Origin: a virus | Taxonomy: Duplodnaviria; Heunggongvirae; Uroviricota; Caudoviricetes | Direction: 5' to 3' (one strand) | Virus record (IMG/VR): IMGVR_UViG_3300022924_000017 | Coordinates: 22,054 to 86,053 of that record | Length of the DNA stretch: 64,000 nt | Part shown: piece after piece, positions 14,811 through 56,600 of the stretch | Layout: every line of letters begins with the position of its first letter | Position numbering within the stretch: position 1 is the stretch's first letter | The notes under the pieces: model-generated | Told to the model about the DNA's origin: nothing | Seen by the model: the letters and a program-made list of their open reading frames with translations, nothing else | Databases searched by the model: none | Program-made: the position numbers and the translations under genes

Positions 14811-14828
14811 CTTTGTCCTTTTATGTTT

Positions 14829-35830: not shown

Positions 35831-36406
35831 ATGAATAATCAACCCGACCAAAAACCCAAAGAGACCCCTGAAGAACGACGAGCCCGACTCATCGCTCAAC
35901 TTGAACGTGGTCGCGAAATTGCAAAAGAAAAGAAAGAACTTATGGAAGCTGCGGGCATGGACCCGTCAGACTATCAATTAACAAAAGACGGTGACGTTGT
36001 GCAACGTAAACCATCTGTGAAAAACCTCTCAAAAATCGTGCAAGAAGTACTTGCTGACCCTGAGTGGATTGACAAGGTGATTCGTAACCAGCCTGACTGG
36101 TGGCAAGGTCTACCCGTTAAAAATGCCGCATACATTATGACAACTAGTATGATTACTATGGCTATGTCTGGTAACCTCAAAGCCGCTGACTGGGTTCGAA
36201 AGACTGGTTTTGGTGAAAAGGTAACAGTCGAAGCTGAAGACGATTCATTCTTCGGTAAGCCAGACTTCACGATTCGTGTGGTCAACCCAACATACACTGT
36301 AGAGGAATTGCAGGGCGAAGAACCGAAATACATCGAATCAAACGCTTCTGAAATGATTGAAGAACACCTAGGCACCGAACTCGATGCAGAAGACGTTGAA
36401 TCTTAA
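35831..36406 (+). CDS. putative terminase small subunit
   Basis: 191-aa basic/acidic protein immediately upstream of, and translationally coupled to, TerL. Confidence 0.45.
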   Translation: MNNQPDQKPKETPEERRARLIAQLERGREIAKEKKELMEAAGMDPSDYQLTKDGDVVQRKPSVKNLSKIVQEVLADPEWIDKVIRNQPDWWQGLPVKNAAYIMTTSMITMAMSGNLKAADWVRKTGFGEKVTVEAEDDSFFGKPDFTIRVVNPTYTVEELQGEEPKYIESNASEMIEEHLGTELDAEDVES

Positions 36407-37812: not shown

Positions 37813-37813
37813 C

Positions 37814-38899
37814 GTGCTTACCCCATCAAATAACCTGTTAACCGTTGACGGTTGGAAAAACGTCACTGAATTAAATGTCGGTGATGAGATTTTAACGACC
37901 AACTTCGCGGGTCACGGTATATTCTCCCCGATACTCAACATTACAGAGTACGACTACGATGGATATATTTATGAACATGTGCATATCTTCAAGCGACAGG
38001 GTGGTATTATTAGTCACTTTTCACTTACCGAAGACAGCACGCTACCCATTAGAAAGACGCTGTTTCGCAAGAGCATTCTCACAGGTGAACGTATTGCAGT
38101 TGAACAAATCGACAATATCAAAATCAAAGACATTAAGAAGAATGTTCAAGCAATCGTCAAAAGCCCTCTTCAGTTCACAATGAAAGATAAGCGTCATCAG
38201 GCTGGAGTAATCAAAAATGGTTCACTGGATATGAGCGAGTCAGAGTATTTCAGACTTCTTGCTTATGCGGTTTTTAGGGGAGCGATTACACAAGACGAAG
38301 GTTCTCGTCACACCCTTACAATGTTCAGGGTTCGTGAAAAAGATGACCCGACACGTCTCATGGATTTGCTTGATCGCAACCGAATCGCGTATCGTACATC
38401 AAGTGGGGTGAAGAACGGTTATTTAGAACGCTTGATATTCTTGCGAAGCAGCGCAGGTGCGGCTCGTTCTTTAAAAAGGTTCATAGGTAAAAGGGTGTAC
38501 GAGCGAAAAATACCGAACGTGGTTATGCGCTCAACCTCACCTGACGCTGTTTATGCGTTCATCACGGAAGTTCTACGAATCAAGAAACCTGAGTGGGACT
38601 TTGACAACGGTATCCCTTCAAAAGGTCCACCCCTAGACTTTAGCGTGAGTAATGTAGAGCAAGCTGAACAGCTCGCAGACCTTTTCTTCAAGATTGGCTA
38701 CCCAACAACAATAACTACAACAAGCTATTCTACACAGTTGGTTGTGAACCGTCCAAAGTTCGCTAGAATAAAGGTAGAGGACATTATCAAAAAAAAATAC
38801 ACTGGAAAGGTGTACGCAGTCGATGTCATCAATGAAATGGCAGTCTGCAACCCCACAAACCTCGGCCCCCGTTTCTCAATGGTGGTCAAAGTAAATTAG
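37814..38899 (+). CDS. free-standing intein-like (Hint-domain) protein with central endonuclease-like insert
   Basis: GTG start 5 nt after AGGTGG RBS; N-terminus (M/V)LTPSNNLLTVDGWKNVTELNVGDEIL matches intein block A with Cys1 replaced by the initiator; C-terminus KVYAVDVINEMAVCN resembles block F/G. Confidence 0.55.
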   Translation: MLTPSNNLLTVDGWKNVTELNVGDEILTTNFAGHGIFSPILNITEYDYDGYIYEHVHIFKRQGGIISHFSLTEDSTLPIRKTLFRKSILTGERIAVEQIDNIKIKDIKKNVQAIVKSPLQFTMKDKRHQAGVIKNGSLDMSESEYFRLLAYAVFRGAITQDEGSRHTLTMFRVREKDDPTRLMDLLDRNRIAYRTSSGVKNGYLERLIFLRSSAGAARSLKRFIGKRVYERKIPNVVMRSTSPDAVYAFITEVLRIKKPEWDFDNGIPSKGPPLDFSVSNVEQAEQLADLFFKIGYPTTITTTSYSTQLVVNRPKFARIKVEDIIKKKYTGKVYAVDVINEMAVCNPTNLGPRFSMVVKVN

Positions 38900-38908
38900 G
38901 AGAACATT

Positions 38909-39499
38909 ATGATTACAGTACACAACCCGACCAATCTACCACTCGTCAAAATCAGTGAAGCAATACCCGTTCAGGGTGACTTGAAAGTGCTCACTCAAGA
39001 GAACTACGATAAGCTCAAACAATCAATCCTTAGTGACGGGTTCTACCTACCTATCTTCGTCTGGAAGCACGATGGTGACATCTACCTGCTCGACGGTCAC
39101 TCGCGACAAAAGGTCATGGAAAAAGAAGGTTGGGACGTTGAAGTACCTTACGTGGCTGTTGAAGCTGAAGACTACGATGAAGCTCGACGCAAAATTCTAT
39201 ACATTTCGTCACAATACGGTGTCATCACAGAAGATGGCTTCAATGACTTCGTAGTAGGCCTCGAACACTTGGATATTTCGAACATACACTTTGACGCACT
39301 TGATTATACACTTGCAACTGACGCATTCGTGGACGTTAACGAAGCTGAAGACGAAGCTCTCTCAAGTATGGTTGATGAGAAAGAGAAGACGTACTCACTC
39401 ACGATTAAGGCTGCTGACGAAGAGACAATCCTTGAAATTAACGACAGCATTCGAGACGTTCTCGACCAGTACAGCGGTATTAGCGTTCGGGTCAAGTAG
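38909..39499 (+). CDS. ParB-like nuclease domain protein
   Basis: YLLDGHSRQKVMEKEGWDVEVPYVAV ParB/Sulfiredoxin N-domain motif. Confidence 0.55.
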   Translation: MITVHNPTNLPLVKISEAIPVQGDLKVLTQENYDKLKQSILSDGFYLPIFVWKHDGDIYLLDGHSRQKVMEKEGWDVEVPYVAVEAEDYDEARRKILYISSQYGVITEDGFNDFVVGLEHLDISNIHFDALDYTLATDAFVDVNEAEDEALSSMVDEKEKTYSLTIKAADEETILEINDSIRDVLDQYSGISVRVK

Positions 39500-41310: not shown

Positions 41311-41940
41311 TTATTCCTTGTCGAAAAGGTCGCGAGCTTCTGCGTTGTTTACGTTGTAGTCAAGAAGTGGTTTGCGTGATAGGTCTTTACCAAGAATGCT
41401 CAAGAATAGAGTGTTTGGGAACCCTTGAACGTACTGGTTGTAGTCTTTCACTGTATCGTTGTACTGTTCGCGGTATTGTGCAAGACGGTTTTCGGTCGCG
41501 CTAAACTCTAGCATTGTTTGCTTGTATAGTTCGGTTGACTTGATCTCAGGGTACGCTTCTGTCACAGCTTGAAGTGTCAACTGCGCTTGCTCTACGTTAC
41601 CCTTATTAGCTTGTGAACGTGCTTCTGCGATGGTTGTTTGAGTTTCTTGCTCAAATGTACGAGCTGATTGCACAGCGTCTACAAGGTTGTTAAACAGGTC
41701 GACACGTCGTTGTTCTTCTTTGCTGATGTTTGACTTTGCAGTTGCTACAGTTTCAGACTTGTTAACGTAAGTGTTGTTGTAACCTGCGAGCCCACCAATG
41801 ATGATCCATAGCAGTACAAATGCTACTCCTAAACCGATAAAAATGCTGATTGCTTTACTTGTTGCGTACCAAGGTGTTTTCGAGGGTGACATTGTATTCT
41901 CCGAGTTAATATGCTTTTCATAGATTATAACACTGCACAA
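41311..41940 (-). CDS. LemA-family protein
   Basis: N-terminal TM helix plus the LemA-like region ...RRVDLFNNLVDAVQSARTFEQETQTTIAEAR... Confidence 0.65.
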   Translation of the reverse strand: MCSVIIYEKHINSENTMSPSKTPWYATSKAISIFIGLGVAFVLLWIIIGGLAGYNNTYVNKSETVATAKSNISKEEQRRVDLFNNLVDAVQSARTFEQETQTTIAEARSQANKGNVEQAQLTLQAVTEAYPEIKSTELYKQTMLEFSATENRLAQYREQYNDTVKDYNQYVQGFPNTLFLSILGKDLSRKPLLDYNVNNAEARDLFDKE

Positions 41941-42380
41941 CTGTTTTTATAAGTGTATAATAGATGTAACGGGGGCGATATAGATTTCGACAGTAGTACC
42001 TAACAGTTAAGTTGCAAGTACATGATTAGTTCAATCACACTTAAACGCAAACACATTCGTTTCAAAAGTTAAGAACGCAGTTGCGCAATTCGTTGCCAGC
42101 CCAGTTCTTGCTACAGCTGCTTACTAGCGGTGCGTTTTATGCAAGTTCGTTATTAGCGCATAAAACGTTATACACCCTATAAATAACGTTGTCGCGGTTT
42201 CTTACTCCCACGCAAAACAAAAGGTAAGCTGAGCACACTCCTAGATGTCTGACCTTAAACAGAACAAACTTGTAGACGCTTAATTATTAAACCGCTGGAC
42301 TCGGGTGCAATACCCGACGCTTCCACCAATTAGAACCTTTACAACACGGCACGACTCACAAAGAAAAGACAAGAAAAGAA

Positions 42381-42827
42381 ATGACAAAAACACAACCTGT
42401 AGAATTAGTATTTGAAAAGAACGGCACTAGCTGGGGCCTTAGTAGCGACATCGTTAAACACACGATTGACCTACCTATACCAGAAATGGGCTTCGACCAA
42501 GGTGTTCACCTAGTCGGGGCAAAAGTAATCAGTAGTATTAGCACCAAAGACGACAAGTCGGGCGGAGCTTCAGATACTGGGTACATCAATATGGTCGCAA
42601 ACATTATCACCGACCAAGACGTATCGAACATTGTGGGATCGGTTCTCACAATCGTTGACGCAACAATCACTGATAAGGACCAACGCAAAGCGTTCAAGTC
42701 GCTTATCAAACAGGCAATCTATAGCCGATACAGTAGCGTAACCATGCGCTCAGGGCAAATCGTTGGCGAATCTGGGTACACCATTAACCCAGGGCCAGAC
42801 GGTATAACAGAACCAACAGAGAACTAA
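42381..42827 (+). CDS. hypothetical protein
   Basis: 148-aa ORF after a 440-nt intergenic region. Confidence 0.4.
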   Translation: MTKTQPVELVFEKNGTSWGLSSDIVKHTIDLPIPEMGFDQGVHLVGAKVISSISTKDDKSGGASDTGYINMVANIITDQDVSNIVGSVLTIVDATITDKDQRKAFKSLIKQAIYSRYSSVTMRSGQIVGESGYTINPGPDGITEPTEN

Positions 42828-43301
42828 TAAAATAAAATAATTGTCGTGCCGTGCTATAACGGTTATAATAGAAGTACACCAGAGCTAGACTGCCAAACAA
42901 AACGAGCGTATCTATACGAACGAATGGGGTCAGCGGGCAGGACACGGTTCTGGGTCAATGATGTATTGTCTGACCCCAGAAATTATTATGGTAACAGCAG
43001 AAGAAATCAAACAGCGTTTCGAAAACGCAAAAAATCAACCGCTTGACCCAAATCTCAGGTTTACTTGCGCTTGCGGTAAACACGCCCCAGATGTACAATT
43101 AACAGATAAAGATTATCAAGAAATTGCAGATATACTAAATGGCGAATCATAAACGAAAACCAAATTACAAGTCCAAACGTTCGTGTGGGCTTTGTAAACC
43201 ATGGAAGCGCATTGGTAACAGCAAGAAACTTGAAGACCGCAAGACGGTACTGGCTGCTATGACTTAGGTACAATCAAGTACCAATAAGCATAGGAGTTCC
43301 C

Positions 43302-43703
43302 ATGGGACAACTTAAACGCGACCACGGGGGTTATCACTCAAGTGGTCTCTGGATCAAATACCAACAACCCGCTGTGGTTGAAAACGTGTCACGCAAAGCG
43401 AAGAAAAAAGACACGAAAAAATGGTGCAAAGGTAAAGTAGGAGTCGAACACAAATGGGTGCAAACACTGCACCGCTCACGTTACGACCGCTACAGCTACT
43501 ACACCAGCAAATGCGACACCTGCAAAAAGGTGATATACCAAAAGCGAGTAAAGTCACAACCCCTCAAAATTGAAGTAGAGGGGTCTTCGGGCATTCGCTC
43601 ATTCCCTATACAAGTTAAAGTAAACGGTAAAGCGATACCAATCGACCCCCGACGTTTTACAGAAGACTTTTGCTGGCAGTGTATGGAATGGCACCAGTAC
43701 TAA
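43302..43703 (+). CDS. hypothetical basic protein
   Basis: 133-aa ORF. Confidence 0.35.
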   Translation: MGQLKRDHGGYHSSGLWIKYQQPAVVENVSRKAKKKDTKKWCKGKVGVEHKWVQTLHRSRYDRYSYYTSKCDTCKKVIYQKRVKSQPLKIEVEGSSGIRSFPIQVKVNGKAIPIDPRRFTEDFCWQCMEWHQY

Positions 43704-44109
43704 TCGCAAGTTCATACCACTCTTGTGTTTCGTTGATACAGCGAATCTTGTGAGAACGCTCCTCTTTCTTACGACGAACGAATGTTATGCGACCTTTCTC
43801 AGTTCGCCAGATCGCGTCTAAGTTAGAGTTGCAGTTCTGGTGCATAGGACGCAAGTTGCTTACGTCGTACTTGCACTGTGGGTAATCCTGTACCCGTAGA
43901 ATGTGGTCGAGTGACAGTTCGTATTTCCAGACGGGTTCACCGCAAAAAGCGCACAACCAACCAGTATCACCCTCTTCGCTGAACTCGGTGACTGGGTTTT
44001 GTTTCCCCCATTTTTGTCTGGTTAGTTTCCATTTATTTGTTGATAATACTTTTGCCATTGTGAACCTTAATTTGTTCGCATTGTACCATTTGCCCCGTTG
44101 TGTCTGCAA
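43657..44109 (-). CDS. HNH endonuclease
   Basis: CAFCGEPV...LDHILRVQDYPQ...NLRPMHQNCN. Confidence 0.7.
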   Translation of the reverse strand: MQTQRGKWYNANKLRFTMAKVLSTNKWKLTRQKWGKQNPVTEFSEEGDTGWLCAFCGEPVWKYELSLDHILRVQDYPQCKYDVSNLRPMHQNCNSNLDAIWRTEKGRITFVRRKKEERSHKIRCINETQEWYELAISTGAIPYTASKSLL

Positions 44110-44135
44110 GCATATTCCTGTATAATTAGCACCAG

Positions 44136-44504
44136 ATGAGAATAGAGGACGTAATCAAAGGTATCAAAGAGACTCGCGAGGAATTGCGCTCCCCCGATGC
44201 GATTACCGCCCCTGTTCTGCTTAGTGAGAATATGTACAAGCTCGCTCAATACGTTTCAGCCGCAGAAGAAATCGTAGCTGACATCGAGTCAGAAATGATT
44301 CTGTTTGAAGCCGAGAAGGTAAAAGAGCTGTCTCGCAACAACTGGTCAGACACAAAGGTCAACCAGAAGGTGCGGCTTGAAAGCGCAGCGAACCGTGCGA
44401 CCGTAGCACGTCTCAACAAACTAATTGACTCATCATGGCGACTTATCAACGTATCACAATCACGACGTAACCATATAGCAGAGGAGCTAAAAAACTTACT
44501 ATGA
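44136..44504 (+). CDS. hypothetical protein
   Basis: 122-aa ORF. Confidence 0.35.
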   Translation: MRIEDVIKGIKETREELRSPDAITAPVLLSENMYKLAQYVSAAEEIVADIESEMILFEAEKVKELSRNNWSDTKVNQKVRLESAANRATVARLNKLIDSSWRLINVSQSRRNHIAEELKNLL

Positions 44505-44759
44505 AAACCTTATTCGACAAATACTTCTACAAGGCTGATGACACGATTCTTATTCGTTCGTCAGTTATGCAACAAAAGACTGGTCTGGCTTTATTTCTTG
44601 CTGGTGACCGTCTACCCCCTTACATTTACAAGGTGCAGGTGACCAACCGCACTTGGCGTGGCTACACTGTCGTCGATGGTGATAACCTCAAGTACTTTGT
44701 TAAGTTCAAGTATGTTATCACACGGGAAGAAGTAGTCGAACCCGCTACGAAGAAGTAAA

Positions 44760-45419
44760 ATGGACGCGGTATATCTTTACAAGCATACGAACAGCGATGA
44801 ACTATTCTATTCGATTCGCTTGCTTCAGAAGTTCTACCCCGACCTTGGCACTATCTACGTTATCGGTGATTTGCCACCAACACGGCTGCACGGTGAAGTA
44901 GTCCATATTCTACACCGTTCAATCGTGGGTAAGTTCGCTGACCAAATGCTCAAGTTCGCACTCGCGGTTCGCATTCCAGAACTGACCGACCAATTTATTC
45001 TTATGATGGACGATGTTTATCTCACCGCACCTTTTGAGCCATACCGAATGTACGACCGTAAGTACCCAATGCTAAACGAGAAAATAAAATCTCGCGCTGA
45101 TGACCCGTACCGCAAATCACTTATCAAGACGGACGTGTACCTGAAGCAAAATGACCTCGGTACCCGTAACTACGAACTCCACGTACCTGCTCTGATTGAA
45201 AAAGAGAAGGCGTTGTATATGACAAACAACCTCATCGACACGGATTTCGACCTGCAAATTAAAAGCCTGTACTTCAACTTCTACCCTTCGCTTGACGGGC
45301 TGGGTTCAGTGCCGTATGATGATGTTAAAAACATTAAAATCGAAGACGTTAATGCCTACTTATCGACAAGCAATGTTAAGTTCGAAAAATATAGGAAGTT
45401 TTTGGATCAATTACTATGA
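44760..45419 (+). CDS. putative glycosyl- or hexose-phosphate transferase (Stealth-like), uncertain
   Basis: ILMMDDVYL acidic motif; operonic with the GT2 and MTase genes. Confidence 0.3.
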   Translation: MDAVYLYKHTNSDELFYSIRLLQKFYPDLGTIYVIGDLPPTRLHGEVVHILHRSIVGKFADQMLKFALAVRIPELTDQFILMMDDVYLTAPFEPYRMYDRKYPMLNEKIKSRADDPYRKSLIKTDVYLKQNDLGTRNYELHVPALIEKEKALYMTNNLIDTDFDLQIKSLYFNFYPSLDGLGSVPYDDVKNIKIEDVNAYLSTSNVKFEKYRKFLDQLL

Positions 45420-46810
45420 ATGAACCTGTAGTCGGGGTTGCAATATCAACCTACAAAAGACCAGATGTTTTCAAGAAAACATACAAAGAAATTAAAAAGT
45501 ATCTGCCAAAAGGTGCCGTGCTTGTCGTTGTATCAGACCACGATGAAAATGCACCCAAAGAAGCTGATTACGTCTTCCCTGAACGTGGTGGTGTTGCAAG
45601 AGTCAAGAACAAATGCCTCGAACTGCTCGAAGAACGCGGTGCGACTGACTTTTTCCTGTTCGATGATGACACATACCCAAAGGTAAAAGACTGGTGGAAA
45701 CCTTACGTCGACAGCGAAGAGCCCCACCTTATGTACCAGTTTCGGGAGTTCGCAAATAACCCAGCAAAACAGCTTACCGATATGCTTGAAATATACCGCG
45801 ACAGCACAATCGTTGCTTACTCACACACTCGCGGTTGCATGATTTATGCTAACAAGTTAGTGCTTGAAAAAGTGGGCGGCTTAGACCCTCGATTCGGTAT
45901 CTCGATGTTCGAACACACCGCATGGACTAACCGCATCTTCAACGCTGGCCTTACTACGTTCAGAGCAATGGACGTGCCTGACAGTTCGAAGCTGATCTAC
46001 AGCATGGACGAATACCAAGAGGTTTCAAGCTCAATCGAACAACACGCACGTCGAACTGGTCTTGCGAACAACGCGAAATTGTATCGCGAATCACTAAAAT
46101 CCAGCGAGTACATTGATTACCGAGAGGTCAAGAAGTCTGATAGCGCAGGAATGAACAACGTAATTATCGCTTCTTACTTTACATCGCACGAAGACCCTCA
46201 ACGCAAGGTAAACTGGTCAGCAGATTACAGTGCTATGAAGCCGCTCATTGATTCATTGCAGGGCGAAAAGCTAGTGCTTCTGCACGATTGCTTCGATGAA
46301 CCCGACACCGAGCAGGTCACACACATAAAAGTCGAGAGCGTATTAAACCCGTACTTTCAGCGGTGGCTCAGTATTTATCGCTACCTGAAACAGCACCCCG
46401 AAATTGATAATGTTTTCTGCGTCGATTCAACTGATGTCGAGGTGGTTAACAACCCGTTCAGAGACATGGAACCTGGCAAGATTTACTCTGGTATCGAGCA
46501 GGGTGTGCCTTCACAAAGCAGATGGTTGAGACAGCACTCAACCGTTGAACCATATCGCACTTTCACCGCGCGAAACCGTCAGCACATACTCAATTGCGGT
46601 GTCGTTGGTGGCTCTCGTGAAGACATTATCGACATCTGCAGGGGTATTTACACCCGATACTTCGATAGCGGTAAGAAAATAACAGTCGAAATGCCGATTT
46701 ATGGCTTTCTGCTACGAACCTTCTACGCTGGTAGGGTTGTCACTGCGGGTGTTACAAATCAATTCAAGTCGTTCAAGTCAGATGGCACCGAACGATTCAA
46801 ACATAAATAG
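45416..46810 (+). CDS. two-domain glycosyltransferase (N-terminal GT2-like)
   Basis: VGVAISTYKRPD and FLFDDDT (DxD) motifs; second domain VIIASYFTSHED ... CVDSTDVE. Confidence 0.6.
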   Translation: MNEPVVGVAISTYKRPDVFKKTYKEIKKYLPKGAVLVVVSDHDENAPKEADYVFPERGGVARVKNKCLELLEERGATDFFLFDDDTYPKVKDWWKPYVDSEEPHLMYQFREFANNPAKQLTDMLEIYRDSTIVAYSHTRGCMIYANKLVLEKVGGLDPRFGISMFEHTAWTNRIFNAGLTTFRAMDVPDSSKLIYSMDEYQEVSSSIEQHARRTGLANNAKLYRESLKSSEYIDYREVKKSDSAGMNNVIIASYFTSHEDPQRKVNWSADYSAMKPLIDSLQGEKLVLLHDCFDEPDTEQVTHIKVESVLNPYFQRWLSIYRYLKQHPEIDNVFCVDSTDVEVVNNPFRDMEPGKIYSGIEQGVPSQSRWLRQHSTVEPYRTFTARNRQHILNCGVVGGSREDIIDICRGIYTRYFDSGKKITVEMPIYGFLLRTFYAGRVVTAGVTNQFKSFKSDGTERFKHK

Positions 46811-46822
46811 AAAAGAGAGAAA

Positions 46823-47338
46823 ATGGCTGGAGTTTCAGATTTCGAAAACAAACATATTATTAGGCAGTGGTTGCTAGACCACGAAGATGACTTTAAAACC
46901 GTGCTCGACATTGGTGCGGGCGTGGGTACATATTCACTAATGGGTCGTATGCCATCTCAACACTGGACCGCGCTCGAGGTTTTTGAGCCGTATGTTGAAA
47001 TGTTCAACCTTGAAAATAAATACAATGAAGTAATTGTTGAAGACGCTCGAACTCACGAGTATAAAGACTACGATCTTATCATTGCGGCAGATATGATTGA
47101 GCACATGGAAAAAGAAGAAGCAAAAACCCTCATTAAAAAACTGATTGAGCATTCAAAAACTTTGTTGCTTTGCTTCCCTGTAGTTCATCACGACCAGCAC
47201 GCAGGAGCCGAAGGTAATGATTTTGAGACACACGTTGACCATTGGGACGTAGAAGAGATGGACGATTTCTTGGCTGATAACGATTTCACTTCTATTGTTG
47301 GTGAAGTCTGTGCTTACTACCACGTTAGCAAACCCTAA
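46823..47338 (+). CDS. class I SAM-dependent methyltransferase
   Basis: motif I VLDIGAGVGTYS; acidic residue after beta2 (DLIIAADMIEH). Confidence 0.65.
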   Translation: MAGVSDFENKHIIRQWLLDHEDDFKTVLDIGAGVGTYSLMGRMPSQHWTALEVFEPYVEMFNLENKYNEVIVEDARTHEYKDYDLIIAADMIEHMEKEEAKTLIKKLIEHSKTLLLCFPVVHHDQHAGAEGNDFETHVDHWDVEEMDDFLADNDFTSIVGEVCAYYHVSKP

Positions 47339-47828
47339 TCTTTTTTGGTGATTGTTAGAGCGTGGTGAAACAGCCCCCCCTACCCCCCAAGAACTTAAAC
47401 GTCTTGAAGGATAGGTAAGCTGAATCTTTCTCGGAGCCATGCCGTCGGAGTTTCATCAGTGTAACCACCCCCTATAAGTAGTACAATGACCTGTCACGTC
47501 AAAGGGTTACAGCGACAACCTGCTATATCATTCTGTCCAAACAGTAAACTGCAAATCAGAAGTCGATAAGAATATAGCGTCGAGGGTTTGCACCTCTTCC
47601 TGGTTCTCGTCCCAATTCATATCATACAGGGCGTCCTTTGCCAATGCTACTTTTTTCATTGTCCTGTATAATAGTAATATGGTAGAAGATAAAATACACA
47701 TCAGCAGCCCACAAAACCGTGAACAACGACGAGCGACTAAGCCGTCAGATCCAAAGTACACGAAAGCACGCTGGGCAATGCAGCCGAAAGCTGAGCTACG
47801 ACGCAAACGAAAATTAGGGAGAAAATAA

Positions 47829-48263
47829 ATGGCAAAATCAACAGAATCACGATTGCTTGCGATTGAACGAAAAGTGCAGCGCGTAATCCGCAAGAGCATT
47901 CGCAACAATGAAACCGACTACCACGTTCAAATGAGCGTTTCTTCACTAGAGCCAGGTGTCGTTAAGTACTCGCTTAACATTCAGAACCTAGACGGTACGT
48001 TCGCGCCTATCACCTCTGTGCTGACTTCGCTAGATGACCTTGAGCTTGTCGCAAAAGAGCTTGAAAGCAAGATTGACCGCGACCTACTCGAGAAGAAATT
48101 CATCCAGTCACGTATCGACATCTTCGAAAAGCAACTAGAGGGTGCAAAGCAATCTCTCGCTGACCTTGAAGAACTTGGTTACGAAGGGCTACGCGAGCGT
48201 CAAACACTTGAGTTCAACGCGAAATACAAACAAGCTGAAGAAGACGAGGAAGTAGAGAGCTAA
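47829..48263 (+). CDS. coiled-coil hypothetical protein
   Basis: 144-aa ORF. Confidence 0.4.
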   Translation: MAKSTESRLLAIERKVQRVIRKSIRNNETDYHVQMSVSSLEPGVVKYSLNIQNLDGTFAPITSVLTSLDDLELVAKELESKIDRDLLEKKFIQSRIDIFEKQLEGAKQSLADLEELGYEGLRERQTLEFNAKYKQAEEDEEVES

Positions 48264-48302
48264 ACAGCCTCTGCCACCCGTCTCCAGCGGGCAGGAACGA
48301 TT

Positions 48303-48833
48303 ATGGGTAAAAAGTTAACAGGTAACCCACATATCATCAAAGACGGGGTTTGCACCCTGTTTTTGTTAGATAAAGACGGTAAGGTACGCGCTAAGACAAT
48401 CGTTGACGAAGATGACGCTGAGCGTGTCTTAAAACGTCGCTGGTTGGTCGGTAGAAGCGGGTACGCAATCACGGTGGTTGGTGAGAAACAAATCGGTCTA
48501 CACAATTTCATTATGAATAGTCAGATGATCGACCACAAAAGCGGCAACCGTTTTGATAACCGCAAGGTAAATCTGCGAAAGGTAACTCGACAGCAGAACG
48601 CGCAGAACGTTGCCATCGGTAAGCAGAATACTTCTGGCTACAAAGGAGTCTCTTGGGACTCACGCCTAAAGAAGTGGGCTGTGTTTATTCAAATCCCTGG
48701 TATGAAGATCAAGCGGGTTTGGGCAGATGACGACCCGATACAAGCCGCGTACATCTATGACCAGTGGGCTATGCAACTATTCGGTGAGTTCGCTCGCACC
48801 AACTTTCAGTACAACAACGAAAAAGAGACCTAG
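48303..48833 (+). CDS. HNH/AP2-domain homing endonuclease
   Basis: HNH core GLHNFIM...DHKSGNRFDNRKVNLR and AP2-like SGYKGVSWDSRLKKWAV. Confidence 0.6.
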   Translation: MGKKLTGNPHIIKDGVCTLFLLDKDGKVRAKTIVDEDDAERVLKRRWLVGRSGYAITVVGEKQIGLHNFIMNSQMIDHKSGNRFDNRKVNLRKVTRQQNAQNVAIGKQNTSGYKGVSWDSRLKKWAVFIQIPGMKIKRVWADDDPIQAAYIYDQWAMQLFGEFARTNFQYNNEKET

Positions 48834-48905
48834 CCATCCACGGTAAGTCTCTCTTTCGATACGTCGCTCAGGTTTTTACCTACGCGTACGCTAATTGTAA
48901 CTCGA

Positions 48906-49640
48906 CTATTTTACTTCTGCAATAGCTTTGTCGTGAATGTTCATAATGATTGACACGTTGTCAAACCAGAACAGTTGCGCTCGGAAGATACCACCCGTAG
49001 CTTTGAAGTTATTGTAGAAACGGTCGTGTGAGAATCCTGGTGTACCAAGAGCTGAAAGATACGCTCGGATCATCTTACCTTGAATGAAGATAGGGTTGAT
49101 ACGTGCAATGTCTTCGATTTGTTGTACACGGTCTTCGATAGTTTCGTGGTCGAAGTCAGCAAGTTGGCCTAGCTTGAAGCGTCGGTTTTTACCTGATGAT
49201 TCCCCGCCAACGATAATCGCTAGAAGAATTGTTGGTGTTAACCAAGTGTGGTTTTCTAGAATGTCTGCAAAGTTCTTGTAAGTCTGTGAACCTTGTGAGA
49301 CGTAGAGGTGTAGGTAGTCCATGAGGTTCCAAGTCTTAGATGTGATGTTCATCTGTAGAGCGTCAGAAACTGTGAGACCTGGGCGCATAATGTAAGCAAC
49401 TGGGATGCCTGCTGTTTCGGCAGCTTGTAGACGGTGTTGACCATCAATGACTTCCATCTTTTCGTTTACAGTAATAGGTGAGATTTCTGTAATGTTAGTT
49501 GGTTTACCTTTTGCGTCTGGTTGTTCGATTTGCGCGATAAGACGCTTAACGTGCTTTTGGTCAACGTTTCGGTTACCACCAAGCACCTTAAATTGTTCGT
49601 AGTCTGTTGTAGACTGAACTTGATTTGTTGTTCGTGACAT
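48906..49640 (-). CDS. ParB-like nuclease domain protein
   Basis: EISPITVNEKMEVIDGQHRLQAAETAGIPVAYIM ParB N-domain motif. Confidence 0.55.
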   Translation of the reverse strand: MSRTTNQVQSTTDYEQFKVLGGNRNVDQKHVKRLIAQIEQPDAKGKPTNITEISPITVNEKMEVIDGQHRLQAAETAGIPVAYIMRPGLTVSDALQMNITSKTWNLMDYLHLYVSQGSQTYKNFADILENHTWLTPTILLAIIVGGESSGKNRRFKLGQLADFDHETIEDRVQQIEDIARINPIFIQGKMIRAYLSALGTPGFSHDRFYNNFKATGGIFRAQLFWFDNVSIIMNIHDKAIAEVK

Positions 49641-49720
49641 ATTGTCTCCTTGCTGAAAGCAATTTTATATTCTTCTTCTTATACACCGTAGTTTAGAGAC
49701 ATACCGCTCAGGTCATTTTG

Positions 49721-50134
49721 CTACTCTAATGTTCGAGTTCGTGGTCGTACGTAGCCTGGTCGTTTACCAGTACCAAGTCGAATATCTGCTGAACGAGCTG
49801 CTGGTTTATAAAACTTGTAGGTGTAATCTTCACCTTCAACTTTTACGTACTTGCCGCGTGGCGCAATACCGCTCTTAGCAAAACGAATTGAACGTAGTGT
49901 GTGGTTAGTCTTACCGTTTCGGGTCATAGACTTTAAGTAACCAACGCCTAGGTGTTCTTTTGTTGCTACTGGTTCAAACTTGACAATGCCTTCTTCTGGG
50001 TCGAAAAGAATCTTTGCGAACTCGAAGTCTGGTTTGTCTTGTCCGAAGTAAAAACCGTCAACTGTGTGACTGACGATATTCTCATCGTGCGATTTAGGGT
50101 CTCGCTTCCCGACTGTAAACTCAGTTAGTGCCAT
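49721..50134 (-). CDS. hypothetical protein
   Basis: 137-aa ORF. Confidence 0.35.
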   Translation of the reverse strand: MALTEFTVGKRDPKSHDENIVSHTVDGFYFGQDKPDFEFAKILFDPEEGIVKFEPVATKEHLGVGYLKSMTRNGKTNHTLRSIRFAKSGIAPRGKYVKVEGEDYTYKFYKPAARSADIRLGTGKRPGYVRPRTRTLE

Positions 50135-50502
50135 TATGTATTCACCTCTTTCTTGAGTTGTTTATTGGTTTCTCGCAGAACTGCAGCCTGTTGCATTTTC
50201 TCTGCGTGTTTCTGTGTGTATAGCTTAGTGCCGAATGGTAACTTGTGTTTAGCAAGATACTGGGTTCGGTTTAGCTTATGCACACGAGATACATGTAACA
50301 TCAAGTTAGTCTCAGACTTGAAGTCACACTTTTTTTCTAGACAGTAGGTGTTGTCTGCCGCTTGTTGCCAAGCATTGCGACCACCTTGCCTATACATTCG
50401 TGTAATCTGTGATTGAAAACTTGTGATAACACACCTCCTGTGAACTACCGATATTTTAATGTACACACCTATCGTACCACCCATAAAACGAGGTGTCAAC
50501 AC
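50134..50502 (-). CDS. hypothetical basic protein
   Basis: 122-aa ORF. Confidence 0.3.
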   Translation of the reverse strand: MLTPRFMGGTIGVYIKISVVHRRCVITSFQSQITRMYRQGGRNAWQQAADNTYCLEKKCDFKSETNLMLHVSRVHKLNRTQYLAKHKLPFGTKLYTQKHAEKMQQAAVLRETNKQLKKEVNT

Positions 50503-50610
50503 ATTTTTACCACCATTTTCACCACGAACGTGCCGCCTCTCCGTAACCCCTGTTTTTCACCTTTATATATACTAGATATAGATAAACAAGATATAGAAAG
50601 AGACGACAAC

Positions 50611-50904
50611 ATGTCCGTGACTAACCCACAATTACTCTTAAAACTTAGCAAGAATAAGTTTTACAAGTTGACAAAAGCAGAACAGGAAATCTTAGACGAT
50701 TTTTTAGCGAAAAACTCGGAAAGCGATACGACGAACTCTCCGAAGACGAAATCACGCAAGCTCGCAAAGACTACCCCTGCAACTGTCAGCACAACCCCTG
50801 ATGAAACACCTACGTTCACACGCAACTACTTCGAACGCGAAACTGGCGAAATCCCAGAAGAAGATGTAGTGAATCTGCGAGATGACGACAATGCAGGTAA
50901 ATAA
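50611..50904 (+). CDS. hypothetical protein
   Basis: start moved to the internal ATG (MSVTNPQ); about 97 aa. Confidence 0.35.
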   Translation: MSVTNPQLLLKLSKNKFYKLTKAEQEILDDFLAKNSESDTTNSPKTKSRKLAKTTPATVSTTPDETPTFTRNYFERETGEIPEEDVVNLRDDDNAGK

Positions 50905-51130
50905 CTTCCACGAAATTCGTTGCCCATACGAGAAGCTATCTCGAACTAACGGTCAAAACTACAAATGTAACTCACTTTGTGTAAAAGTATCTGACGGCTC
51001 AGCTGGTGAAGCTCGATGCCGCAAATGCTACGCTAACTTCATCTTTAGCGTTGTAGACGGTAACGTGCAAACTCAGACTATTCAACAGGTCGTAAGCGCG
51101 AACCACACTAAGAAATAAGTAGACCTATAG

Positions 51131-53659
51131 ATGAAGATCGTCCGACCAGACAAGCTCCGCACTATGAAGCAGACTATCAAGCGTATTCACTACGCTACTG
51201 CTTTCTATTCCGAAACAGCGGTCGACTCAGTAGAATACTACGAGCAAGGTACTGACGCTCCGACAATCATCTCAAGCAATATCACCACTGCTGGCTCATT
51301 CAACTCTGCAGTTGGGTCACGAAATGTGCTTAAAATACACGGTATTGTTGACCAAACAGAAGGATTGAGCGCAGACTCAGCACTTTTGGTGCAAAAAGAG
51401 ACTCTTGCGGTCATTTATAACGGTGACTTTCAATCTACGGATACTTGGGATACCTCAACCGTCGCTGGTTGGTACCTAAAAAACGAAGGGGGCTCAAGTC
51501 TCGCTTCAATCTCAACAGCAGAACACCACAGCGGTACGAAATCACTGCAATTACACGTTGACGAAGACGATAATTATGTTTCAGCTGGTGTATCTGACGC
51601 TCTCGACACAGCAAACATCATACGGCTTACACCTGAAGGTCTATACACCTTCTCTTTCTGGCACAAATCTACCGAAGAGGGGGTTTTGAACCTCGTTCTT
51701 ACAATGCAACGAGCAAATGGGGATACAGTTTACCTGCAAGCAGATGGTACTTGGGGTGACACACCTAACATCGCTATCTCAACAAGCGATACCTGGACTA
51801 AATATACGATCAACTTCGAAGCTCAAGACCGAGTTCGACTAATGCAATCACCACTTATGGATCTTTACTTGCAAACTGGTAACGGTTCTGCGGGTATCGA
51901 CTACTTCTTAGATGACGTGGTTCTTGACCCACAGGTAGCAAACAACGCTGACCTGGCTTACTTCGACCGTTTTATCCTTCACCGTGGGGAAGTAACGAAG
52001 GTTGAAAAAGACGAAGACGCACCTAGCACTACAATCACCATTGATGACGCTATCGTTGTCGCGGCTTCAACTCCGTACGGTGGCCTTAACATTGATTACC
52101 CAGTGACAATCGAGGGTCTGATTAACGCAATCGCAACGTCAGTTATTACAAATGGTAGCGCGGTTTATCCAGACAACCTACCAAATCTCGACTACTCACT
52201 CCCATCAGATGCCTTCGCAAACATTCAGAACTATATGGTTCGTGACTTCATCGCGGACATCGCAGAAGCGACAGGGTCAACTGCTCGAATTACACCTCAA
52301 AATCAGCTCGAGTTTACCCCAATCACCATGAACCCAGTCGACACACTCGACCACAGCACCCTTAGTAAGCTCAAAGTTATCGCTACAACTGGTAGGGTCA
52401 ATCAATTGTCACTATCTCGTCAACCACAAGATGACAACATCGTAGAAACTAACGAAGTATCAGCAGTCGCAGACGGTTTGACTACATACCGTATCGTAAA
52501 CAACTGGATTATGGACCCGAACCGAGCCGCTTTCATTGTCGACCTATTCAATGACGTATATGACGGTGTTGAATACTACACAGGTAGAGCAGAAACAATC
52601 GGGCTATGTGCTTATGACGTAGGTGATGTAATCATCATGGACAACGGTGGCGACGAATACAATATGTTCATCAACGAAATCGACCTAGTCATGGAAGGTG
52701 GTAGCATCAAAGAAATTCTCGTCTCAGTTCCATTTGACGACGGTACGACAAACCAACAAACTGCTGGTAATGTCTTGACTACGCTTTACAACACAAAGAT
52801 TCAGGTAGACCACCAAAACAACAGCATCACCTCTCTCGTGGCTGAGTACACATCATTTGCAAACGAAACTACTTCGCAATTTACTCAGGTGCTTCAAACT
52901 CTCGAAAACATCACATCAACGATTCAATCGACTGGTGGCGGTAACTTAATCCAAAACTCTGTTGGCTTCTCTCGCGAAGGTACAGCCCTATCTCACTGGA
53001 TCGAATCTGGTACGGGTACACTTAGCTCTCAAGACGCTCCATCTTCACTCGCATACGGTGCGGTATCAGGTCACTCTATTATGCTTACAGGCAGCAGCAA
53101 GAAAATAAGCCAGCGCGTACCAGTTACGCTTGGTGGTGAGTATTCATTCTCAGTCTACGCAAGCAAAACAACTGCAGGTAATGCTCATATCCGTCTTTCA
53201 AACTCAGTAGACAGCTACGAATTTGACCTACTTTCAGGGCAAATCTACACTTGGACTTTCTTCTACACGGAAGGTATAATAGCTTCAGACGTATACTTCG
53301 ACATCGAAATCGAGTCAGACGGTGCGTCCGCATTTTACATTACTGACCCAATGCTCGTGACTGGTGTATATCGTCAGGTTTGGTCTCAGTTTAACGGTGA
53401 AATCCTTAACACGAGTGTCCAGATCGACACACGCGGTATTCGGGTATACTCAGATGAGAACGTTGGTTCATACACAATGATGACACCAAGCGAGTTCGCC
53501 TCATACGACTCAAACAACGAAGTCGCGTTCCGAGCTAACAACGACACTATCGAAATGAACAATATGCTTGTAAATGGTGATACATATTACCAAAACTCGC
53601 GAGTATTCATTCGACAGGACAGCGACGGTCTATCATATTACATTAGAGACCCAGCATAG
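51131..53659 (+). CDS. tail fibre / receptor-binding protein with carbohydrate-binding-module-like domains
   Basis: 842 aa, Ser/Thr/Asn-rich beta-type composition; first gene of the late fibre operon. Confidence 0.5.
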   Translation: MKIVRPDKLRTMKQTIKRIHYATAFYSETAVDSVEYYEQGTDAPTIISSNITTAGSFNSAVGSRNVLKIHGIVDQTEGLSADSALLVQKETLAVIYNGDFQSTDTWDTSTVAGWYLKNEGGSSLASISTAEHHSGTKSLQLHVDEDDNYVSAGVSDALDTANIIRLTPEGLYTFSFWHKSTEEGVLNLVLTMQRANGDTVYLQADGTWGDTPNIAISTSDTWTKYTINFEAQDRVRLMQSPLMDLYLQTGNGSAGIDYFLDDVVLDPQVANNADLAYFDRFILHRGEVTKVEKDEDAPSTTITIDDAIVVAASTPYGGLNIDYPVTIEGLINAIATSVITNGSAVYPDNLPNLDYSLPSDAFANIQNYMVRDFIADIAEATGSTARITPQNQLEFTPITMNPVDTLDHSTLSKLKVIATTGRVNQLSLSRQPQDDNIVETNEVSAVADGLTTYRIVNNWIMDPNRAAFIVDLFNDVYDGVEYYTGRAETIGLCAYDVGDVIIMDNGGDEYNMFINEIDLVMEGGSIKEILVSVPFDDGTTNQQTAGNVLTTLYNTKIQVDHQNNSITSLVAEYTSFANETTSQFTQVLQTLENITSTIQSTGGGNLIQNSVGFSREGTALSHWIESGTGTLSSQDAPSSLAYGAVSGHSIMLTGSSKKISQRVPVTLGGEYSFSVYASKTTAGNAHIRLSNSVDSYEFDLLSGQIYTWTFFYTEGIIASDVYFDIEIESDGASAFYITDPMLVTGVYRQVWSQFNGEILNTSVQIDTRGIRVYSDENVGSYTMMTPSEFASYDSNNEVAFRANNDTIEMNNMLVNGDTYYQNSRVFIRQDSDGLSYYIRDPA

Positions 53660-53679
53660 AAATAAACAGGTATATATAA

Positions 53680-56600
53680 ATGGCAGGTTCATCAACTCAA
53701 CGAAATGGCTCAGGTTCTTTTGCGAACTGGGGTCTTCGTATTGTCTGGAGTTCTTATGTCGACGTACCAAACAACCGCTCACGTGTTGACGCAACCCTCC
53801 AGCTGATTATCCCTGGTGGTGCCTCAATCGCCGCTACAGAGTCTGGTGCAATCAACATCAACGGTCAGTCATTCGGTTTCTCTCGTGGCTCAACTACCCG
53901 TGGTGCAGGTACGCATAACCTCTACTCTTACTCAACTTGGGTGCCGCACAATGGTGACGGTACAAAAGGTATCTACATCGGTGGTTCATTCAGCTCTGGT
54001 TGGTCATTCTATAACAACTCGGGTGGTCCACGCGATGTCGGTGGTAACTTCGGTCTTGATAATATCCCACGTAACCCTAACATTCAGGGTGCTTCTGACT
54101 TCAATGACGAGGGTACCCCTAGCGTCTCTTACGCAAACCCAGCAGGGAACACTGTTACTGGGTTCTTTATGCTACCAAACATTACTGGTGGTACTCAATA
54201 CGCATGGCGAAACTTCGGTGCGAACGGTGGTCAAACGTATAACTGGTCACTAAGTGCTGGTGAACGCAATGCAATCCGACAAGCAATGGCTAATACTGCA
54301 TCGACAACTGTCCGCTACTACATCGGTAACGGTCTTGGGTCTGACCAAACCGTCGACCGAACCGTCTCTATCGTGGGTGGTGAACCTACATTTAGCACAT
54401 TCGGCTACTACGACAACAACCCTGATACGGTTGAAATCACAGGTAACGATCAATACTTAATCCAGAGCTACTCAGAACCACACATTACAATCGAGTACCC
54501 GTCTCAAGCAGCCACAGCGAACAAATACGCTACAATGAACTCATACCTTGCGGTTACCCCTTGGAACTCAGTCAACATACCCTTTGACGACGAAGACATC
54601 GACGTTGGTGTAGACATCGCTAACTACGGTGACAACTTCAACTTTCAAGTAAGCGCAAAAGACTCACGTGGTAAAATGACCCTCGCAAGCAAAACTGCGA
54701 ACCTATTACCATACAACTCACCTATCTTGAACATTGGTGTTGAACGTATCGACTCTGGTGAAGGCGACTTTGACGCAATTCAAATGCAAATCGGTGGTCG
54801 TTTCTCACCTCTAACTGTTGGTGGATCACCTAAGAATGCGGTAAACGCTTCAAACGGTGTATCATACCGCGCTCGAAACCTCACATCTGCGGGTGAATGG
54901 GGTGCTTGGGACAACGTGGATAATACCAGCGATGCTTCGGGTAACGTAACTGTACCAGACTTCACGGCTACTACTTTCGCTGCGGGTGAAACTACATACG
55001 CAGAAGCAAACACATATCAAATCGAAGTGAAGATGACTGATAAGCTCGAAACAAAGTCTTACTTCTTCACCCTAGAACGATCAATCCCTCTATTCAAAAT
55101 CGGTAACGATGACGTTATTTATTACAAGGGTATCGCAATGGACGACTACATTGTATCTGTCGCCCCTGAAGGCCCATCTGGTGCAACTGGTTCTCAAGGT
55201 GCAACTGGGGTCGGTCCAACTGGTCCCCAAGGTCAACTCGGTAACACTGGGGCTACAGGTCCAGCTGGTGTCCGTGGTTTCACGGGTGTAACTGGTGTAC
55301 GTGGATTTACAGGTGTCACAGGTGCTACTGGTGTCGGTGAAACTGGGCCAACTGGTGCGACTGGTATCCAGGGCCCGAGCGGTGCAACAGGTGTCGAAGG
55401 GCCAACAGGTCCTCTCGGTTTCACTGGTGTTACTGGTCCATCGAACTATGACGTATGGGTAGCTCAAGGTGGTGTCGGTGGTACTGGTGCGTTCTTGATT
55501 ACAGCTCGCGGTGCTACTGGTGCGGTTGGTAACACGGGTACTTCTGGTCTAACTGGTGCAACAGGTATTCAAGGTCAAACAGGGCCACGAGGGTTCACTG
55601 GCGCAAATGGTAATACTGGTGCTACAGGTACTGGTATTCAAATCGTTGGTACGGTTCCTACTGCTTCTAGCCTTCCTGGTTCAGGTGCAGACGGTGACGT
55701 ATACATTGCTACTGATACTGGTCACGGTTGGACATATAACGGCACAACTTGGGTTGACATCGGCCCACTAACAGGGCCAACAGGTCCTGCAGGTGCTACT
55801 GGTGCTGGTCGAACTGGTGCTACTGGTATTCAAGGTGTACAAGGGTTCACAGGGCCAATCGGTCACTCAGGTCCAACAGGGCCAATGGGTGCTTCTGGTG
55901 TCGGTGTTCGTATTCTTGGTACGGTCGCAACCGTAGAAGACCTACCTGACGATGCCGCTATCGGTGACGGTTGGATGGTTGATGGCGAGCTTTATATCTG
56001 GGACGGTGACAGCTGGGAATCTGTGGGACGCATTATGGGTCCTACTGGTGCTACAGGTGTTCGCGGTTCAACAGGTGTTCAGGGTCCTTCAGGTCCTTCA
56101 GGTGCTTCTGGCCCTCTTGGTTTCACAGGAGCAACTGGCCCTATGGGTCGGGGTGTTACGGTTAAGGGTACAGTTATCGTAGAGTTCGACCTTTACGGTA
56201 TCCCTTCCCCAGCAACAGGTGACATCTACATTGTAGAAAACCCTGACCACGACGCTTGGATTTGGAACGGTGTAGTCTGGGAAAACCTAGGTCCTATAAC
56301 CGTTGGTGCAACTGGTACTCCTGGTGCTCCTGGTTCGCCAGGTGGTGCCACGGGCCCTCGTGGTTTCACTGGGGTTCAAGGTCCGACTGGTCCACAAGGT
56401 GCGACAGGTTCAGGTGCTACAGGTACCCCAGGGCCAACAGGTGCCACAGGCCCAGTAGGGGCAACGGGTACGCCAGGTTCAATCGGTACAATCGGTCAAA
56501 CTGGTCCTTCTGGTGCCGCTGGTAATACTGGTGCAACAGGGGCAGCGGTCGGGTTCAGAATGTCTTACATTGGGGACTCATCAACAGACCTAGACCCTAC

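Follow-up and report, generated by a model that had tools for sequence, protein, structure and literature searches.

Virion glycosylation and the operon under study

According to Freeman et al. (2023, Cell Host Microbe), virion glycosylation has reportedly been shown only for mycobacteriophages and was considered rare in other phages. The enzymes of the Che8-type system include gp108-110 of Che8, gp100 and gp103 of PMC and gp101 and gp103 of Rita. Papers that cite this work describe Che8 gp110 as indispensable for glycosylation of the capsid (PMC12363180), report that the Che8 and Rita capsids bear glycans (PMC11256854) and locate the glycans on the C-termini of the capsid and tail-tube subunits (PMC12619734). 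In the giant virus PBCV-1, virus-encoded cytoplasmic glycosyltransferases (GTs) of the GT-A type, such as A64R, likewise build a capsid glycan. PBCV-1 capsid glycans include methylated sugars. The present analysis deals with an operon of three genes (positions 44760-47338) that encodes a Stealth-like transferase, a two-domain glycosyltransferase and a methyltransferase. It is carried by a stretch of 64,000 nucleotides, called the window hereafter, that corresponds to positions 22,054 to 86,053 of the IMG/VR record IMGVR_UViG_3300022924_000017 and covers about three quarters of the roughly 86-kb genome of a large, tRNA-rich metagenomic siphophage.

This operon most likely glycosylates the structural proteins of the phage itself, a reading to which a rough probability of 0.55 can be given. 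This role is favoured over others because one of the enzymes is homologous to glycosyltransferases of Cluster F mycobacteriophages, because related genes are found in head modules and because candidate acceptors carry C-terminal Ser/Thr tags. The operon and the two genes that precede it are organized as follows.

44760-45419, + strand: protein A, minimal Stealth-like transferase, putative hexose-1-phosphate transferase (219 aa)
45416-46810, + strand: protein B, predicted two-domain GT-A glycosyltransferase (464 aa)
45416-46123, + strand: N-terminal domain of B, GT-A/GT2-like (residues 1-236; R15, D83-D-D85, E166-H167)
46142-46810, + strand: C-terminal domain of B, sequence-orphan alpha/beta domain (residues 243-464)
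46823-47338, + strand: protein C, class I S-adenosylmethionine (SAM)-dependent methyltransferase, small-molecule or sugar O-methyltransferase type (171 aa)
44136-44504, + strand: 122-aa protein, no family assigned, first gene of the coupled block
44501-44758, + strand: 85-aa protein, no family assigned, ending 1 nt before A

The stop codon of gene A and the start codon of gene B overlap as ATGA, and 12 nt separate the stop of B from the start of C. The two upstream open reading frames (ORFs) are coupled in the same manner, the stop of 44136-44504 overlapping the start of 44501-44758 as ATGA, so that the unit really comprises five genes. In three relatives out of three (loci L006, L008 and L009, on contigs of 78-84 kb), a 122-aa ORF lies two genes 5' of the A homologue, and relatives carry a small ORF of 64-85 aa at the place of 44501-44758. 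Neither the 122-aa nor the 85-aa protein matches any Pfam or PHROG family. Hydrophobic segments are absent from all five products; A, B and C are soluble proteins devoid of transmembrane segments, with acidic to near-neutral isoelectric points (4.6-6.5).

The first-pass annotation, made from the sequence alone, had described at this place three consecutive and overlapping genes encoding a Stealth-like or unknown transferase, a GT2-like enzyme with a DxD motif and a second domain, and a class I methyltransferase, located just upstream of the tail-fibre genes. Three ORFs that overlap or abut are indeed found there on the + strand, and the three assignments agree with the profile, structure and motif data reported below. 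The position relative to the fibres holds only in a loose sense: the first fibre-like gene (51131) starts about 3.8 kb after the operon, and an HNH gene and three minus-strand genes intervene.

A two-domain glycosyltransferase related to those of Cluster F mycobacteriophages

Residues 5-463 of protein B align with positions 21-481 of the 482-position profile phrog_1579 ('glycosyltransferase', a family of two-domain phage enzymes that includes the PMC gp100 type), a full-length match with E = 1.7e-124, and the N-terminal domain of B also matches phrog_2456 (E = 2.6e-54). B shares 38% identity over the full length with PMC gp100 and Rita gp101 from Cluster F mycobacteriophages (E = 2e-99 for Rita gp101) and 34% identity with ECP1_022 from an E. 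coli phage and gp32 from the Cronobacter phage ENT39118. At least 715 homologues were found, many of them 440-490 aa long and 40-53% identical, and B homologues bear matches to PF00535 (GT2) and PF02709 (Glyco_transf_7C). The DDD motif of the N-terminal domain (residues 83-85) is invariant across 40 homologues, and a PDB profile search with this domain gave weak matches to heparosan and chondroitin synthases, B4GalT7 and ppGalNAc-T2.

The C-terminal domain possesses its own invariant residues in 40 homologues (D260, Y313, D337-x-T-D340, N393/G395/G398 and the terminal H463-K464), and its predicted model shows a high-confidence beta-alpha-beta arrangement. No relationship to the N-terminal domain could be detected. 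This domain is probably a second nucleotide-sugar transferase. B would thus resemble the enzymes that have two GT-A domains, such as the E. coli K4 chondroitin polymerase (K4CP), the Pasteurella heparosan synthase and LARGE1, which also combine two nucleotide-sugar-transferase-like domains in one chain. However, it differs from these three enzymes by a second domain that has no sequence relative in PDB or Pfam and by the existence of relatives that encode the N-terminal domain as a separate gene; furthermore, nothing points to B being a polymerase.

In PMC, Rita, ECP1 and ENT39118, the B homologue is always accompanied by a transferase of the Che8 gp110 type (PMC gp103 is 91% identical to Che8 gp110, ECP1_023 33%). 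The glycosyltransferase genes of ECP1, ENT39118 and the Cluster F phages sit just before the terminase genes. Other related genes are found inside head modules: locus L023 harbours a B-family gene between the portal/MuF and protease/capsid genes, and locus L031 carries an A homologue (27% identical) that is directly followed by a GT2 gene, between the capsid and adaptor genes. ECP1 (KY979108; L004/L018) and ENT39118 (L002) are culturable HK97-like phages in which the B-family and gp110-type genes lie between the lysis and terminase genes; in the annotation of ECP1, the gp110-type gene appears as 'HNH endonuclease' and the B-family gene as 'hypothetical protein'. To our knowledge, virion glycosylation has not been reported for either of these two phages.

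The similarities to the Che8-type system extend beyond B. The enzymes are likewise soluble proteins encoded by the phage, their genes lie together among late genes, and the sets of glycosyltransferases likewise vary among related phages. As in Che8, a short tag with a terminal Ser is found at the end of the capsid protein as well as of the tail-tube protein. In contrast, the small gp110-type transferase is absent and the Stealth-like A occupies the partner position, a methyltransferase is included in the operon, and the tags end in [D/E]-S instead of G-S. The host is not an actinobacterium (GC content of 45%, terminase nearest to those of Bacteroidota phages, G5-domain endolysin), and the phage, which is known from sequence alone, has a genome of about 86 kb with 22 tRNA genes and looks lytic. 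PBCV-1 is a more remote case, as it is a eukaryotic virus with atypical N-linked glycans and its homology to the operon is limited to a shared fold.

A minimal Stealth-like transferase in the partner position

Stealth enzymes are hexose-1-phosphate transferases that produce phosphodiester-linked glycans (PMC5974469). The family includes the N-acetylglucosamine-1-phosphotransferase GNPTAB, the meningococcal capsule polymerases CsaB and CsxA, and CpsY, and it provided the best profile and structural matches for A. Protein A matches Pfam Stealth_CR2 (PF11380) along almost the whole profile (positions 2-102 of 108; E = 2.4e-7) with a score of 31.3 bits, below the cut-off of 39.4, and several of its homologues carry a precomputed PF11380 match. 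CR2 is the sole Stealth domain reported for A by Pfam at E values up to 1, with no CR1, CR3 or CR4, and neither A nor B matches any NCBIfam family. A PDB search with a profile of 12 close homologues returned Stealth structures only, namely the Drosophila and zebrafish N-acetylglucosamine (GlcNAc)-1-phosphotransferases and CpsY from M. tuberculosis (7dxi, 6.7e-5; 7s6n, 6.8e-4; 8j2n for CpsY, 0.1). In the same way, the AlphaFold2 model of A (mean confidence, pLDDT, 87.7) gave 13 top Foldseek matches in PDB that are all GlcNAc-1-phosphotransferase or CpsY (probability 1.00; E from 7e-9 to 2e-6), followed by GT6 enzymes.

Two motifs of A, 'MMDDV' (D84, D85) and 'ELHVP' (H141, P143), are invariant in the 12 close homologues and in 2 distant ones (27-30% identical). 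They align with 'LNDDV' and 'AHMPHM' of GNPTAB, so that A keeps both the 'NDD'-type acidic pair of CR2 and the 'H-x-P' motif of CR3. At 219 aa, A falls short of the usual Stealth length of more than 300 aa, known members ranging from about 320 to 1250 aa. Since it is far shorter than known members and scores below the curated Pfam cut-off, A is called here Stealth-like and not a member of the family. Judging from its motifs and predicted fold, it is probably a sugar-phosphate transferase, although this assignment remains putative. Because it is located in the conserved partner position, A may replace gp110 as the initiating or an early enzyme, which would predict a sugar-phosphate linkage.

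The close family of A is tiny (11 clusters), and scanning metagenomes with the profile of A brought up none but close relatives. A tblastn search of A against phages gave a sole match, gp105 of the Gordonia phage BrutonGaster (27% identity). Distant A-like genes are present in at least 395 stretches of IMG/VR. Among 72 such loci, 55 of the 78 neighbouring genes encode glycosyltransferases, and others encode methyltransferases, a sulfotransferase and ATP-grasp enzymes. The largest clade of these A-like minimal Stealth genes is represented by L048 (IMGVR_UViG_3300023184_003179) and about 50 similar loci. Islands of the L048 type contain GT1-like, RXYLT1_C-like, PIG-L deacetylase and FkbM methyltransferase genes, as well as genes encoding an NAD epimerase/dehydratase, a nucleotidyltransferase-HAD fusion and a tryptophan halogenase.

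Such islands raise the main rival explanation, in which the operon modifies or builds a polymer of the host envelope during infection, be it wall teichoic acid, a capsule or some other glycan. Superinfection could thereby be blocked, or progeny kept from being trapped on debris, as might be compared with the prophage-encoded TarP and with the cyanophage islands of 'cell wall synthesis and modification'. The Stealth enzymes that build phosphodiester-linked capsular polymers (PMC5974469) would suit such a role, and most IMG/VR A-like genes belong to islands that also encode epimerase/dehydratase, PIG-L, FkbM methyltransferase and nucleotidyltransferase enzymes, as is typical of polysaccharide pathways; cyanophage islands of such genes have been interpreted as modifying the host surface (PMC12801897). 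The host is, moreover, probably Gram-positive, as suggested by an endolysin with Amidase_2 and G5 domains encoded in the window and by a CHAP protein of the phage. However, neither a membrane-anchored enzyme nor a flippase, polymerase or lipid-carrier transferase accompanies A, B and C, which themselves lack transmembrane segments. The phage also looks lytic, given that no integrase was noticed among the annotated genes and that 22 tRNA genes are present, so that serotype conversion would bring no obvious benefit. B-family and A-like genes are found inside head modules, and the closest characterised relatives of B belong to phages whose virions are reported to be glycosylated. Considered as a whole, an action on the host envelope appears rather unlikely.

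The methyltransferase and the variable cassette

Protein C scores just above the cut-offs of two Pfam families, Methyltransf_23 (30.0 bits; cut-off 27) and Methyltransf_25 (29.4 bits; cut-off 27), and contains the glycine-rich SAM-binding motif I as VLDIGAGVG. It shows weak matches to Pfam V_cholerae_RfbT (2.2e-4), UbiG and BioC, and its nearest sequence in PDB is 3dtn (1e-4). From these similarities, C is predicted to be an O-methyltransferase of the small-molecule type and not a DNA methyltransferase.

Comparison of close relatives reveals a conserved core followed by exchangeable genes. In L006 and L008, A lies beside a stand-alone 237-aa gene that corresponds to the N-terminal domain of B (42-47% identity), whereas in the phage of the window and in L009, the C-terminal domain is fused to the N-terminal one and C is present. 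Downstream of the core, L006 carries an FkbM-family methyltransferase, a 312-aa protein and a SAM synthetase, and L008 a 402-aa protein that matches Gly_transf_sug (PF04488, GT32-like) and an enzyme resembling sugar-1-phosphate nucleotidyltransferases. The conservation of A and of the first GT-A domain along with exchangeable elaborating or capping enzymes is the pattern of a diversifying oligosaccharide; it fits a surface glycan that would be diversifying among related phages.

This pattern also bears on the possibility that the acceptor is something else: a protein of the host, a non-structural protein of the phage, its tail fibres alone, or a metabolite, antibiotic or other small molecule that would be glycosylated and methylated. 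The sequences of A, B and C do not define any acceptor, and the GT-A and class I methyltransferase folds serve many substrates. The operon is on the same strand as the fibre genes that it precedes, and the A-like gene of BrutonGaster sits among replication genes with no glycosyltransferase nearby, a context that is in itself uninformative. Nevertheless, the conserved glycosyltransferase pairing and the variable elaborating enzymes point to an oligosaccharide and not to a single-sugar tag on a small molecule, and no positive evidence designates any particular one of these acceptors. Such a target therefore seems quite improbable.

C-terminal tags on the candidate acceptors

If virion proteins are the acceptors, as we favour, the capsid and tail-tube proteins are the first candidates. 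The capsid protein is encoded about 4 kb 5' of the window start (L011:4419-6704), in a region just beyond the window that also contains the portal and connector genes. It ends in ...SISSSES (C-terminal stretch ...VVTEPELVASISSSES). This major capsid protein is a fusion of 761 aa made up of an N-terminal domain, a scaffold-like linker that is long and rich in Glu, and a capsid domain of the HK97 type. The other main candidate lies at the beginning of the window.

424-924, + strand: probable tail-tube protein and candidate acceptor (166 aa), located just before the chaperone and tape measure genes, ending in ...GGGDTTVDS

Two proteins of the connector region end in ...NIES and ...PEES. For comparison, 7 of the 104 ORFs of the window end in Ser. 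About 45 of 48 capsid homologues (39-82% identical) have a terminal Ser, which is borne by a variable extension of 14-18 residues past RGSFFRGG, a motif that matches the very end of HK97 gp5. In the tail-tube family, 20 of 31 full-length representatives end in Ser.

The two proteins of a given phage tend to carry matching ends. Those of Che8 are ...KTGS (capsid) and ...SDGS (major tail protein), those of ECP1 SSGS and ASGS (tail tube), those of L023 NFGATT and VEPATT and those of L024 GLTPATP and SLTPATPTP, the capsid of L024 having been chosen as an exception. Locus L025, with its fragmented assembly, provided no further pair. The L024 locus (GCA_031554185.1, JAVBKE010000023.1), with its mucin-like Thr-Pro tags, also encodes a sortase and a 1282-aa portal fusion that includes a 2',5' RNA ligase domain.

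Several points weigh against a glycosylation of the virion. HK97, used as a control, has no glycosyltransferase genes and yet its capsid protein ends in ...SSGS exactly as that of ECP1 does; a Ser at the end is thus not confined to phages with glycosyltransferases, and the candidate rule that ...SGS ends mark such phages was rejected. The survey of Ser tags covered phages irrespective of whether they are known to carry glycosyltransferases. Given that the tags co-vary but that HK97 shares this end, they fit a shared acceptor without proving any. Furthermore, when Che8 gp110, PMC gp103, ECP1_023 and ENT gp17 were compared by tblastn with the window and the flanking sequence, no match appeared at E values up to 0.01, so that the initiating step lacks support from homology. 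Known Stealth enzymes act on sugars and not on protein, their acceptors belonging to capsules, exopolysaccharide or N-glycans in a context that is not that of phages, and the largest clade of A-like genes is found in a general sugar-metabolism island and not in a head module. Finally, the phage is known only from metagenomes, and the evidence concerning Rita consists of a poster, to which a genome announcement refers.

Other glycosyltransferases of the phage and a possible action on DNA

Two more glycosyltransferase genes are located elsewhere in the window.

6332-7477, + strand: GT-B glycosyltransferase (GT4-type) whose gene directly follows the tape measure gene inside the tail module (Glycos_transf_1, 8.2e-15)
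34902-35816, + strand: GT-A glycosyltransferase resembling TAGT, the TET-associated glycosyltransferases (TAGT, 6.9e-33, 114.7 bits; phrog_842, 1.2e-59)

Both had been pointed out in the first-pass annotation, the latter as GT-A-like, and its mention of an unusually large glycosylation toolkit is borne out by these two genes together with the domain assignments of A, B and C. The GT-B gene may be part of the same toolkit as the operon, and the TAGT gene is possibly part of it. The TAGT gene lies directly 5' of the small and large terminase genes, here and in all relatives, and its score passes the PF20691 cut-off (27.5); no TET/JBP partner was found among the genome parts examined. Small temperate phages of E. 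coli, Salmonella, Lactobacillus and Nocardia, as well as the haloarchaeal virus HHTV-2, carry homologues of this gene (38-48% identity), which are sometimes annotated beside a ParB-like nuclease.

A TAGT-family gene recalls the systems of DNA sugar-hypermodification, i.e. the T-even glucosyltransferases and the GT-A and GT-B enzymes associated with TET/5mYOX (Pyle et al., bioRxiv 10.1101/2023.12.21.572611). The enzymes of the operon might thus place a sugar, possibly methylated, or a sugar-phosphate on a base of the phage DNA and thereby counter restriction. Besides this strong TAGT-family gene beside the terminase, the N-terminal domain of B has a faint TAGT match (E = 0.042; 14.2 bits, against the PF20691 cut-off of 27.5) and a phrog_842 match ('beta-glucosyl-HMC-alpha-glucosyltransferase', 1.7e-5). 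In addition, its R...DDD...E residues recall the R...DDD...EDY/F motif of the GT-A enzymes acting on DNA, and sequential glycosyltransferases, as found here, occur in proven DNA-glycan pathways (bioRxiv 10.1101/2023.12.21.572611).

However, these proven pathways cluster their glycosyltransferases with enzymes that make the acceptor base, and glycosyltransferases found without them have been judged less likely to act on DNA (bioRxiv 10.1101/2023.12.21.572611). Precomputed Pfam annotation was considered for the called genes of the window, of 8.3 kb upstream and of 5.4 kb downstream (13.7 kb of flanks), i.e. about 90% of the genome, about 8 kb lying beyond. Within this scope, it includes no 5mYOX/TET, no thymidylate-synthase-like hydroxymethylase, no C5 or other DNA methyltransferase, no kinase and no DNA polymerase, and our own scans likewise detected no acceptor-base enzyme for DNA glycosylation. 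No enzyme producing 5-hydroxymethylcytosine or 5-hydroxymethyluracil was thus found, and the glycosyltransferases are not clustered with genes of DNA metabolism. C resembles small-molecule O-methyltransferases, some small temperate phages in which no TET is known carry homologues of the TAGT type, and the full-length homologues of B are found in Cluster F, where the reported glycans sit on virion proteins. DNA as the acceptor is therefore very improbable. Of the three roles that the first-pass annotation had left side by side (DNA hypermodification, glycosylation of virion proteins and modification of the host surface glycan), the second is thus the best supported and the first is disfavoured.

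A model of how a virion glycan might be assembled

The families of the enzymes, the coupling of their genes, the relationship to Cluster F glycosyltransferases, the exchangeable cassette and the C-terminal tags are observations. From these we infer, under the favoured reading, which proteins are modified, in what order and by what sugar-phosphate chemistry, and how the phage gains from it (shielding or surface properties); the process might be as follows. The block 44136-47338 would be a late-expressed glycan-assembly operon whose product is attached to structural proteins of the phage. Its soluble cytoplasmic enzymes would use nucleotide sugars of the host. A would transfer a hexose-1-phosphate and so create a phosphodiester link, whether to a first sugar or straight to a Ser/Thr tag at a C-terminus; each of the two domains of B would then add one sugar, and C would O-methylate a sugar using SAM, thus capping the glycan. 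The likeliest acceptors would be the Ser/Thr-ending extensions of the capsid (...SISSSES) and of the tail tube (...DTTVDS), and the two head-tail connector proteins (...NIES and ...PEES) might also be modified. Such a placement would parallel that of the Che8 glycans on the C-termini of the capsid and tail tube. As relatives keep A and the first GT-A domain and exchange the elaborating enzymes, their surface glycans would differ.

In the most specific version of this model, A would attach a sugar-1-phosphate to the Ser tags that end the capsid, tail-tube and connector proteins, thus phosphoglycosylating them, and the other enzymes would extend and methyl-cap the product into a teichoic-acid- or capsule-like coat of the virion that varies between lineages. 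This version is speculative and should be considered unlikely as a whole. We know of no description, in any phage or bacterium, of Ser-O-phosphoglycosylation of a protein by an enzyme of the Stealth family.

Other features of the phage

The remaining features of the window are given below.

1673-5554: tape measure gene
36406-37812: large terminase
51131-57549: fibre-like genes
21208-24760, + strand: 22 tRNA genes grouped in a gene-poor region, which is unusual for a siphophage of this genome size (about 86 kb)
13878-15740, - strand: adjacent genes for a polynucleotide kinase/phosphatase and an RNA ligase (tRNA-repair pair like Pnk/Rnl of T4)
41311-41892, - strand: phage-encoded LemA-family protein
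about 32249-33064, - strand: phage-encoded Band_7/SPFH-family protein
38909-39499, + strand: ParB-like nuclease-domain protein
48906-49640, - strand: second, separate ParB-like nuclease-domain protein

The protein encoded by 38909-39499 resembles the N-terminal part of ParB-methyltransferase fusions, without the methyltransferase domain. A polynucleotide kinase/RNA ligase pair is likewise present in the B-family locus L022, beside its glycosyltransferase. After the terminase, 37751-38899 is one uninterrupted ORF; a frameshift suspected at 37959-38899 was rejected, as this region belongs to that single ORF. The terminase is nearest to those of Bacteroidota phages, all of them distant. A nucleotide search with positions 44000-48000 of the window gave no match among isolated phages, indicating that no sequenced isolate is a close relative.

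On the 3' side of the operon, a gene-free stretch of 490 bp (47339-47828) contains C-runs (CCCCCCCTACCCCCC) and an extended -10-like sequence, TGTATAAT; no Rfam family matches it. Scanning 41800-51200 for promoters and terminators yielded as many as shuffled sequence did and is therefore uninformative about transcription units.

Significance

If the proposed phosphoglycosylation is true, virion glycosylation would extend well beyond the actinobacteriophages, including to E. coli phages such as ECP1. If the favoured reading of virion glycosylation is right, the trait would be present in an unrelated, large and tRNA-rich siphophage, where a Stealth-like and probably sugar-phosphate transferase would stand in for the known partner transferase; homologues of the B family are also carried by HK97-group phages of E. 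coli and Cronobacter that can be cultured. The swapping of enzymes among close relatives would be expected under diversifying selection on the surface glycan. A tag that co-varies between structural proteins could then be used to predict glycosylated phages from their sequence and could allow the engineered display of glycans on particles. This would bear on phage therapy, in which glycans protect virions against antibodies.

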